From the NCBI GenBank assembly GCA_963740355.1, contig CAVUDW010000002.1, positions 800,001-864,000 on the forward strand: a stretch of 64,000 nucleotides of DNA. The letters run 5' to 3'. Positions within the stretch are counted from its first letter, which is position 1. Each line of letters opens with the position of its first letter. Shown here piece by piece: positions 47,590 through 49,147 of the stretch. Under the pieces are notes generated by a model. That model was not told the origin of the DNA, did not search any database, and was given only the letters and a program-made list of their open reading frames with translations. Position numbers and translations under genes: made by a program. This stretch comes from an uncultured Gemmatimonadaceae bacterium. GTDB lineage: Bacteria; Gemmatimonadota; Gemmatimonadetes; Gemmatimonadales; Gemmatimonadaceae.

Positions 47590-47625
47590 CCTTCACTGCG
47601 AATCGCAGAGTAGCTGTGTTGAAAG

Positions 47626-48561
47626 TCAAGCCGTGGCGGGCGTGGGGGTCCGCCACGGTGTTTGCGTTTTGACCATCGCGTTGAGGATGGTGAGGAGGCG
47701 GCGGAGGCACGCGATCTTGGCGACTTTGGTGGGCTTCCCGGCGGCGCGCAGCGCCGCGTAGACGGGCTTGAGGACCGGATTCCATTGTGTGGCCACATGG
47801 GTGGCCATGTAGAGGATCGAGCGAATCGTTGCCCGCCCGCCCCAGCACACGCGGGCACCGCGGAATTGCCCGGATTCCTGCGCGAGCGGCGCGACGCCCA
47901 CGAGCGCGGCAATGGCGCGCCGATTCAGCGTCCCCAATTCGGGCAACAGGGCGACCAAGTACCGTGCGCTCTGCTGGCCGATGCCCGGCACGCTCGTCAG
48001 GAGCGTCACCTGCGCTTGCCAGGCCGCATTCCGTTCGATCAGTTCGCCGATCTCATTGTCGATGTCACGCAGCGCCTCGGCGAGCGCCTCCAACGTCCCG
48101 CGCACATTCGTCGCCACGCGCGCGGTCGCGACGTGCAGGCGATTCTTCTCCATCGTCTGCATCGTGACCAACTGCCGGCGCCGTTCCACCAAGGCCGCCA
48201 GCGCCTGCTGCTCCGCGTCGGCGAGCGGCCGGACGGGTGGGGCGAGCACGGCGCCAAACCGCGCCAGGATGCGCGCATCCACGCGATCCGTCTTCGCCAA
48301 CTGGCCGGTGCTGCGCGCGAACTCGCGCACCTGCCGCGGATTGACGACCGCGACGGGGATCCCGGCGCCGGTGAGCGCGCCGGCGACGGCGCGATGATAC
48401 GTGCCCGTCGCTTCCAGCACGACCAAGGTCGGCGGCTGCGCGGTGAGCGCGGTGACGAAGGCGTCGATGTCCGCCGCCGTATTGCGGAGCTGCGTCACCG
48501 CACCGTCGTGGACCGCCACATCCAAGTGGGCCTTGCTGACATCAATGCCGAGATACGTCAT
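47626..48561 (-). CDS. IS110-family DEDD transposase / bridge recombinase (311 aa)
   Basis: [29 protein letters not shown] (DEDD RuvC-like); SVPGIG; GVAP...ESG catalytic Ser motif. Confidence 0.96.
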
Positions 48562-48574
48562 ACTGCCTCCAGGT

Positions 48575-48745
48575 GACGACCGCGCGCGCCCTGCCTTGCG
48601 AGATGCGGGATCGCGTCGGCGTCCCTGGTAGCTGTCCGGGCTTGTAGCGATCGGGACGACGGCGCTCTGACTCTGCGACGGGCTCACGGCGCCCGGGGCG
48701 CTCCGAACGAGCTGCCGCCGTCCCGGAGATTTAGCTTCTGTGCGA
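48575..48745 (-). ncRNA. Predicted IS110 bridge RNA in the ~195-nt non-coding left end (ends approximate)
   Basis: Two stem/internal-loop/stem modules; loop segments match the target (UCGCAGAG, 48671-48678) and the donor junction (ACAGCUAC 48628-48635; GCAAG 48595-48599). Confidence 0.75.
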
Positions 48746-48758
48746 GGAGACATACAAG

Positions 48759-49147
48759 GCGCAGAGGCGCAGAGGAACTGCAACGGCAACTGAACAGCAA
48801 CGGCAACGGTACGGGCAACTCCCTTGACGCAAAACAGCTGACAGGGATACGTCGAAAGCCGCAAAACTGCACACTGCCGCAAAACTGCGGGCGCGATCGG
48901 ATGCTTGGTAGCAAAAAGAGTGTATAAAGACTTTGGGAACTCCTCGCTCACTGTACATCCGCTCCCAAGGCACTTTACCAAAGCAGTTGCCGTTGCCGTT
49001 TTGCGGTCGTAGCCGTTTTGCGGCTTTTGCCTTACCCCTAACGCAGTTTTGCGTCAAGGCGGTTCAGCTGTGGCCTTTCTCTGCGCCTCTGCGTCTCTGC
49101 GATTTGCAGTAGCAGTTCAGTTGTATGCGGCCCTCTGCGCCTCCGCG
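48759..49147. repeat. REP/REPIN-like nested foldback region (IS110 target element)
   Basis: CGCAGAG 9-bp-periodic arms at 48759-48774 and 49079-49110; inner perfect IR CCTTGACGCAAAAC 48822-48835 / 49046-49059; CCGCAAAAC / GTTTTGCGG pairs. Confidence 0.75.

Follow-up and report, generated by a model that had tools for sequence, protein, structure and literature searches.

A multi-copy IS110-group insertion sequence from a Gemmatimonadaceae genome with a predicted IS621-like bridge RNA and its own guide set

How does an insertion sequence (IS) come to occupy the same short intergenic word of its host genome again and again? The question is raised by a 1.15-kb element in a 64,000-nucleotide (nt) stretch of DNA from an uncultured Gemmatimonadaceae bacterium (GenBank assembly GCA_963740355.1, contig CAVUDW010000002.1, positions 800,001 to 864,000), which is called the window below. 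The element is a complete, multi-copy IS110-family insertion sequence of the IS110 group. It is very probably active, or was very recently, and appears to move by bridge RNA-guided recombination like that of IS621. An original prediction, made from the window alone, had proposed a natural IS621-type bridge recombinase orthologue with its own guide set, and this is upheld by the catalytic residues, the ends, a two-module RNA and guides that covary with their targets. The anatomy, the copies and their flanks, the guide-target covariation and the conserved catalytic residues are all direct observations.

Anatomy of the element and its copies

The element lies on the minus strand of the window and has the following parts.

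47609-48758, minus strand: IS110-group element with both cores, 1.15 kb
48759..48765, minus strand: left target (LT) flank TCTGCGC, the final unit of the host CTCTGCGC tandem octamer
48757..48758, minus strand: left CT core dinucleotide
48562..48756, minus strand: non-coding left end of 195 nt, predicted to encode the bridge RNA
47626..48561, minus strand: recombinase gene, coding sequence (CDS) of 936 nt, 311 amino acids (aa), with DEDD residues D7, E50, D92 and D95 and with S230-G231
47611..47617, minus strand: left donor (LD) ACAGCTA, the terminal bases of the right end
47609..47610, minus strand: right CT core
47596..47608, minus strand: right target flank CTGCGA-T-TCGCAG, whose right target forms the 5' arm of a small host-repeat palindrome

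On the minus strand the left junction reads CTCTGCGC-CT-TGTATG (core 48758-48757) and the right junction ACAGCTA-CT-CTGCGA (core 47610-47609), just as had been claimed, and CT is the sole sequence common to both. Without its cores the element occupies 47611-48756. The range first proposed, 47595-48774, contains the element, but wrongly takes in 17 nt of left and 14 nt of right target flank. The right end, from stop codon to right core, is 15 nt long against 195 nt for the left end, and CT flanks all seven copies in the genome. The sequence features of the IS110 group were found in the element with the exception of full left-target complementarity, where only 5/9 positions (GCGC + C) match, which by itself is not above chance. 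The IS1111 group, defined by a long right end that carries the RNA and by subterminal inverted repeats of 7-17 bp (Durrant 2024, PMC11208160), was ruled out by the 15-nt right end and by the location of the RNA in the left end.

Both Pfam domains are present in the recombinase (DEDD_Tnp_IS110 PF01548, E 1.3e-26, 93.7 bits against a cut-off of 29; Transposase_20 PF02371, E 2.1e-15, 57.3 bits against a cut-off of 21.3), in agreement with the view of the locus as an intact IS110 element with a DEDD/Ser transposase between a long left end and a short right end. Residues D7, E50, D92 and D95 align with D11, E60, D102 and D105 of IS621, and S230-G231 with S241-G242; the aligned IS621 residues make up a composite active site (PMC11208158). 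Among solved structures, the top phmmer match is the ISCro4 transposase (PDB 9t56, E 1.2e-35, residues 3-303), followed by IS621 (8wt6-8wt9, E 5.8e-33, residues 2-303). Among species-representative genomes, the most similar protein has 60% identity and comes from a Gemmatimonadaceae metagenome-assembled genome (MAG; locus L008). By exact-protein look-up, the recombinase belongs to a cluster of three members, none of which has an existing name in the protein collection. The same genome has an eighth PF01548 match (G000 C3:1718792-1719271, plus strand, 78.7 bits), which lies in a 511-aa open frame and belongs to a different IS110-family transposase gene.

Five of the seven copies are 99.7-100% identical, one is 98% and one 96%. 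No copies above 83% DNA identity were found among 30 related genomes searched, the best match being 83% over about 100 nt. Aligning the flanks of the genomic copies, a check put forward with the original prediction, showed that they are not unrelated: all seven share CT and a single consensus target, (T/A)C(T/C)GCGC-CT-CTGCG(T/A), within a host octamer repeat. The left flank is TCTGCGC in six copies and ACCGCGC in one, and the right flank is CTGCGT in six copies and CTGCGA only in the window copy. Variable columns among the copies number 1 in the 195 nt of the left end and 49 in the 936 nt of the CDS, 38 of them at third codon positions (manual count). Thus, the RNA region and the protein both look constrained.

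The best available sign of recent movement is a further insertion in metagenome run X1, where a 668-nt contig runs from the left end through CT into CTCTGCGC and then 162 nt more. The 30 displayed letters of these 162 nt are the reverse complement of G000 C2:5003-5032, and in this genome C2:5033 is an empty TCTGCGC-CT-CTGCG. This empty site is one of ten unoccupied matches to the 14-mer TCTGCGCCTCTGCG, which has 13 matches in the genome, the other three lying inside left flanks. As the shared stretch is shorter than the 31-letter words assumed for contig building, the contig is taken as a real eighth, polymorphic insertion. Runs X3 and X4 contain only short, diverged pieces, which are probably relatives. 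An apparent X1 link from 48788 to 49076 was set aside as a repeat or another organism, since it rests on a 27-nt piece with 3 mismatches.

Two-module structure of the left end

A set of 80 related loci was gathered from species-representative genomes. Element ends were set from multi-copy genomes and from the conserved ends ACAG...-CT-TGTAT, and the two-loop region of 26 distinct orthologous elements was aligned with that of the window element (27 sequences). The consensus fold has four helices, namely the outer/lower stems and the inner hairpin of module 1, and the outer stem and the inner hairpin of module 2. Compensatory changes on both sides are seen in 16 of its 24 pairs, and 93.7% of cells are paired, against 39-45% with slid partners. 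None of 500 shuffles reached the observed pairing values; because the aligned sequences are related, the shuffle control is generous and the slide control the stricter one. The fold and its compensatory changes bear out the predicted arrangement of the left end as two stem/internal-loop/stem modules, which in the window are as follows.

48653..48724, minus strand: target-binding loop module, with outer stem GGGACGGCGGC/GCCGUCGUCCC, a 1-nt bulge, GCUC/GAGC, internal loop, and inner hairpin (C)GGGC-GCCGUGA-GCCC(G)
48588..48641, minus strand: donor-binding loop module, with outer stem GCCC/GGGC and inner hairpin GGGA...UCCC

In helix 1 of the target module, 10 of 13 pairs have compensatory changes and 95.7% of cells are paired. 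The two modules are also visible when the left end is folded alone (minimum free energy (MFE) -91.8 kcal/mol, z -2.37). That the segments matching target and donor lie in loops had been part of the original prediction. This holds for the consensus fold, where all guide segments are in internal loops, but not entirely for the single-sequence MFE structure, in which GCG of the left-target guide pairs with CGC of the right-target guide because the target is a direct repeat.

A covariance model trained on the 26 orthologues, with this genome excluded, matches the window at 48588-48724 over its full length (77 bits, E 4.6e-15), and this is the sole strong match in the 64 kb. The next-best match in the window, at 60721-60781 on the plus strand, is partial (14 bits, E 0.15, model positions 7-62) and probably due to chance.

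Guides and their targets across orthologues

With guide polarity as defined by Durrant et al. (PMC11208160), six guide segments can be assigned in the two loops.

48696..48704, minus strand: left-target guide GGAGCGC + C + C, which adjoins the inner stem on the 5' side of the loop; matches 4/7 plus the core C
48671..48678, minus strand: right-target guide (U)CGCAGAG, 3' side of the loop; the complement of CT-CTGCG(A)
48669..48670, minus strand: target-loop handshake guide UC, whose U would pair with donor position 7 (A) after strand exchange
48628..48635, minus strand: left-donor guide ACAGCUAC, which reads as the left donor ACAGCTA followed by the first core base, 8/8
48595..48604, minus strand: right-donor guide, consisting of AU, a 3-nt bulge CUC and GCAAG (48599-48595), with discontiguous pairing to CT-TGTAT
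48593..48594, minus strand: donor-loop handshake guide GC, complementary to LT positions 6-7 (GC)

Both donor guides, ACAGCUAC at 48635-48628 and GCAAG at 48599-48595, had been placed in module 2 with exact coordinates. The left-donor guide is identical to the element's own seven left-donor bases (LD7) in 23 of 25 elements, with five different LD7 sequences represented. Pairing of AU...GCAAG with CT-TGTAT includes one G:T, and the xAU...GCAAG pattern is conserved across orthologues. The IS621 donor cited in the original prediction, ACAGTATCTTGTAT, proved correct by Supplementary Table 2 of Durrant 2024 and the designer README; written ACAGTAT-CT-TGTAT, it differs from ACAGCTA-CT-TGTAT of the window element at 2 of 14 positions.

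On the target side, CGCAGAG pairs with CT-CTGCG in all seven copies. The right-target guide UCGCAGAG (48678-48671) had been read as complementary to CT-CTGCGA over eight positions. Its coordinates and seven of the pairs hold, but the eighth, U:A, is unique to the window copy, the other six carrying T, and the common pairing is 7 nt. Beyond the core, the contiguous run is 5 in those six copies and 6 in the window copy, and the usual run across orthologues is 5 bases past the core. A U at the eighth position is found in most orthologues whatever the target. In 23 self and 506 non-self comparisons, the right-target guide scores 4.9/6 on average with its own target and 2.2/6 with those of others. 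Non-self pairs reaching at least 5 make up 5.5%, and several of them involve elements that share a guide (read from the guide list). The misses are L067 at one of three sites (2/6), L085 (3/6) and L079 (3/6). In first-order Markov shuffles of the 195-nt left end, ACAGCTAC occurs in 0.13%, CGCAGAG in 8.2% and the two together in 0.01%, so the donor guide and the combined CGCAGAG/ACAGCTAC match are well above chance.

Guides and targets vary together across orthologues, as judged from aligned sequences, and this is well seen in two elements of the same genus. In G017, which inserts at C(T/C)CCG(C/G/A)C-CT-ATCGA, the loops carry AUCCGCC-C, retuned for CTCCGCC-C, and AUCGAUAG, retuned for CT-ATCGA. 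In G009, which inserts at TT(T/C)GCGC-CT-TTGCGT, they carry AUAGCGC-C and ACGCAAAG, the latter for CT-TTGCGT. These two and the MAG orthologues from Gemmatimonadaceae, Dehalococcoidia and Binataceae (L008-L087) share with the window element the donor motif ACAG(C/T)(T/C)(A/G)-CT-TGTAT, the RNA architecture and the guide-target rule.

Handshake guides, which are defined as pairing with the non-cognate DNA (PMC11208158), were absent from the original prediction and were found additionally. The U at 48670 pairs with A7 of the donor but not with C7 of the target, and for the G at 48594 the reverse holds, its partner being C7 of the target rather than A7 of the donor; the C at 48593 also matches target position 6. 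Across orthologues, the first target-loop handshake base pairs with LD position 7 in 25/25 elements (C:G in 23, U:A in 2), and the first donor-loop handshake base with LT position 7 in 23/23 (G:C in 21, A:T in 2). The two U:A cases count as one event because they are the window element and its closest relative.

Three further features of the orthologues were seen. Many from unrelated phyla (L012-L016, L049, L062, L067, L079, L082, L085) have (G)TCATC-CT-GAGCG... targets, often followed by AAGCGA, suggesting a widespread repeat or conserved sequence that is used by this IS clade. L047, L051 and L033, on Dehalococcoidia chromosomes, have a tandem 15-nt unit (ATGACCACTGGGACA-like) in varying number between bridge RNA and start codon. 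Locus L068 contains two L067-type copies in a nearly head-to-tail arrangement, separated by 1234 nt.

The left-target guide and the choice of site

Several observations weigh against an IS621-like bridge system. The left-target guide matches only four of seven bases plus the core C at six of the seven sites; at the seventh, ACCGCGC, the same register gives four GCGC pairs and a possible rG:dT wobble at position 1, the best window there (5/7) being in another register. GCGCC is found in 68% of Markov shuffles of the left end, so the left-target match proves nothing by itself. In both 5' guides, C instead of U stands opposite the second core base, as is also the case in several orthologues (loop sequences read by eye). 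A scan of 47300-49100 against Rfam 15 (E up to 10) returned no bridge-RNA family and only chance-level MIR8622 and CRISPR-DR20 matches inside the coding region, so no curated model is applicable to the stretch. In IS621 a 5' stem-loop precedes the loops, and its counterpart in the window RNA is weak. There is no RNA run among the sequencing runs listed for the organism, and the contigs of metagenome runs X1-X4 contain neither a circle junction nor a precise empty allele of the window locus.

A left-target match that is not above chance by itself would also be seen if the left-end structure were a mere leader or protein-binding site, with the recombinase protein alone setting site choice. Nothing specific speaks for this, and it is very improbable, as across 25-27 orthologues the loops vary in step with targets and donors, the stems keep pairing via compensatory changes, and relatives with different targets carry correspondingly different loops.

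Within a bridge RNA reading, the left-target guide GGAGCGCCC at 48704-48696 had been described as matching the target only over GCGCC, and this is exact in coordinates and extent. The caution then attached to the weak match was justified, since relatives too have unmatched distal positions. No other register in the 5' loop, with wobble allowed, is better than GGAGCGC-C at the six TCT sites. G017 (AUCCGCC-C-A) and L008 (UCGUGGC-C-G) have matching guides at the same place as the window left-target guide, and the guide of G009 (AUAGCGC-C-C-G) lies one nucleotide further from the stem and has the AGCGCC core and mismatched A at position 3, as in the window. The exact column register of G017 and L008 was tried for the window element and gives a match of only 1/7; counted from the inner stem, the registers can be brought into line, as the window element can form one extra C-G pair, and G009 has the same one-nucleotide offset. 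Across orthologues, the left-target guide scores 5.1/7 with its own target and 3.3/7 with those of others, a control weakened by the TCATC-type targets that many orthologues share. A score of 4/7 is the lowest class, into which 7 of 23 elements fall. The assignment is therefore supported by its place, by the core shared with G009 and by the excess of self over non-self scores.

The original prediction had offered two explanations of the weak match, mismatch tolerance or a different preferred target. The former is favoured, two same-genus relatives and several others being similarly mismatched; the unmatched distal positions in relatives favour natural tolerance or a short effective guide, as far as sequence comparison goes. 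In the alternative, the programmed target would be GGAGCGC-CT-CTGCGA, and an abundant repeat would supply the seven occupied sites as tolerated off-targets. With A after it, the full 14-mer GGAGCGCCTCTGCG is present once in the genome, at an unoccupied site. This explanation is improbable, since all seven insertions and the X1 insertion are at repeat-type sites, the guide is unchanged even in the 96%-identical copy, and relatives have the same kind of distal mismatch.

The distal three left-target bases may thus reflect tolerated mismatches, a short effective guide in this lineage, or help from the repeat. One sub-variant of the bridge system, with right-weighted target choice, is a tentative possibility: the site would be selected by the 7-nt right-target guide together with the handshake base and 4-5 proximal nt of the left-target guide, and LT positions 1-3 would be unread, or a feature of the repeat DNA (tandem octamers, small palindrome) would substitute for them. 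The GGA-against-TCT mismatch is identical at six of seven sites and the guide is identical in all seven copies. Similar mismatches, read by eye, are seen in G009 (AUAGCGC against TTTGCGC/TTCGCGC, position 3) and L039 (AGAACCC against GTGACCC, positions 1-3), in addition to the 4/7 class noted above. Half-match insertion is reported for IS621 in a preprint abstract, and a target stem-loop is described as a second determinant for ISPpu10 (bioRxiv 10.64898/2026.03.19.712850). However, G017 and L019 match at 6-7 of 7 positions, and the eighth site C2:5033 has no palindrome directly after the right target (read by eye).

In a more specific form, which is somewhat less likely still, the Gemmatimonadaceae-type sub-lineage would have a natural short left-target guide, consisting of four proximal bases together with the core C and a single handshake base, with specificity coming mostly from the 7-nt right-target guide. 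If true, this would be a natural right-weighted or half-match bridge system, in which LT positions 1-3 are free or are read by a feature of the repeat DNA. With a tandem octamer as the host target, the two target guides would read adjacent copies of almost the same word.

Junction promoter and proposed mechanism

Two further motifs lie near the ends of the element.

47624..47629, minus strand: TTGACT, -35-like half of a putative junction promoter, overlapping the stop codon
48749..48754, minus strand: TATGTC, -10-like half, which would form the promoter only across the circle junction

By position, the circle would bring them into the arrangement TTGACT-17 nt-TATGTC; the integrated copy has TTCCTC at the corresponding -35 position. 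Of 25 elements, 18 have TTGAC and 22 have TTGA at the -35 place, and all 25 have TAT(G/C)NN at the -10 place. This conservation suggests a sigma-70-like promoter re-formed where right end and left end meet, comparable to the junction promoter described for IS621 (Durrant 2024, PMC11208160; PMC11208158).

In the mechanism proposed for the window element, transcription, the circle intermediate and the chemistry are modelled on IS621. The promoter would form on the circle produced by excision, with TTGACT of the right end as its -35 and TATGTC of the left end as its -10 element, and transcription of the left end from it would yield a bridge RNA of roughly 140-180 nt. That such an RNA binds the recombinase and directs recombination is indicated, indirectly, by the multiple copies and the one polymorphic insertion. 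The donor-binding loop would hold the circle junction ACAGCTA-CT-TGTAT via the 8-nt left-donor and the discontiguous right-donor guides, and the target-binding loop would hold host TCTGCGC-CT-CTGCG mostly by pairing of the 7-nt right-target guide, to which the left-target guide would add four proximal bases and the first core base. A tetramer of the DEDD/Ser recombinase would then cut after CT and exchange strands, after which one handshake base per loop would pair with its non-cognate partner.

Comparison with known systems

IS621 of Escherichia coli (PMC11208160; PMC11208158) has the same domain order and catalytic residues as the window recombinase, of which it is a distant protein relative. 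The two elements also share a CT core, a long left end and a short right end, a target loop first and a donor loop second, handshake bases directly 3' of the right guides, and a right-donor guide of the same type (AU-bulge-GCAAG in the window, AU-UU-GCAAG in IS621). The left-donor guide of the window covers 8 nt (LD7 plus the first core base), and the IS621 template has 8 programmable bases there. The IS621 target is likewise reported to be a repetitive palindromic host sequence (Choi et al. 2003). They differ in the target itself (ATCGGGC-CT-ACGCA in IS621, TCTGCGC-CT-CTGCG in the window), in the right-target guide, which is naturally 7 nt in the window and 4 in IS621, where it is extendable to 7 (Durrant et al., PMC11208160), and in the left-target guide, which in the window matches 4/7 with CC at the core where IS621 has CU. 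In addition, the right-donor bulge is 3 nt in the window and 2 nt in IS621, the 5' stem-loop is weak, and the window RNA has a G+C content of 73%.

ISCro4, the best solved-structure match, was compared by protein alone. ISPpu10 of Pseudomonas putida is similarly an IS110 element found in many copies of one conserved intergenic repeat capable of forming a stem-loop. In that system the stem-loop is reported to be a GC-rich 5' extension of the target that gates insertion by experiment, whereas the palindrome of the window element is 3' of the core and absent at the eighth site, and any role for it is putative.

The element leaves knowledge of the mechanism unchanged, and a specialist would not be surprised by it, as bridge RNAs have already been predicted in 85.7% of IS110 elements (Durrant et al., PMC11208160). 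What it contributes is a predicted natural bridge recombinase, fully resolved in sequence, from a high-G+C lineage of soil or sediment, described with its ends, eight natural insertion sites, six guide segments and about 27 orthologues with retuned guides. This is a useful natural set of guide-target data, including a persistent distal left-target mismatch, and is suited to tests of how much left-target pairing is needed. The handshake covariation reported for IS621 relatives is found to hold in a distant clade. For annotation of this genome, the element accounts for seven repeats of 1.15 kb and for their preference for one intergenic octamer repeat.

The host repeat and neighbouring features

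In most cases the right target forms the 5' arm of a small palindrome, CTGCG-N-CGCAG, and six of the seven right flanks have CTGC...GCAG within 14 nt (both read by eye, the latter from the flank listing). As a strict requirement for insertion the palindrome was ruled out, the eighth site C2:5033 being without one. Adjacent host octamers of the form CTCTGCG(C/T)CTCTGCG occur 42 times in the genome, with essentially none expected.

These octamers belong to an intergenic repeat family of the host that is found on both strands, genome-wide and in the window at 48775-49157 (for example at about 49080-49093, plus strand). The family consists of tandem octamers CTCTGCG(C/T), which account for the 42 adjacent pairs, and small CTGCG...CGCAG palindromes. 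One part, GCAGTTGCAGTT, has 58 copies against 0.4 expected, and another, GTTCCCAAAG, 17 against 6.5 expected. The family may be REP-like (repetitive extragenic palindromic), MITE-like (miniature inverted-repeat transposable element) or of another kind. Four of the ten unoccupied TCTGCGCCTCTGCG matches (C2:849079, C2:321893, C3:1320828 and C3:1841481) lie 134-1518 bp past the left end of an IS copy and on the opposite strand, and thus the repeat arrays seem to be inverted pairs with the IS in one arm.

On the other side of the window copy, a convergent open reading frame of 343 aa (46558-47589, plus strand) stops 19 nt short of the right core of the IS, which thus follows shortly after its stop codon. 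The IS may here have replaced or split a terminator-like palindrome.

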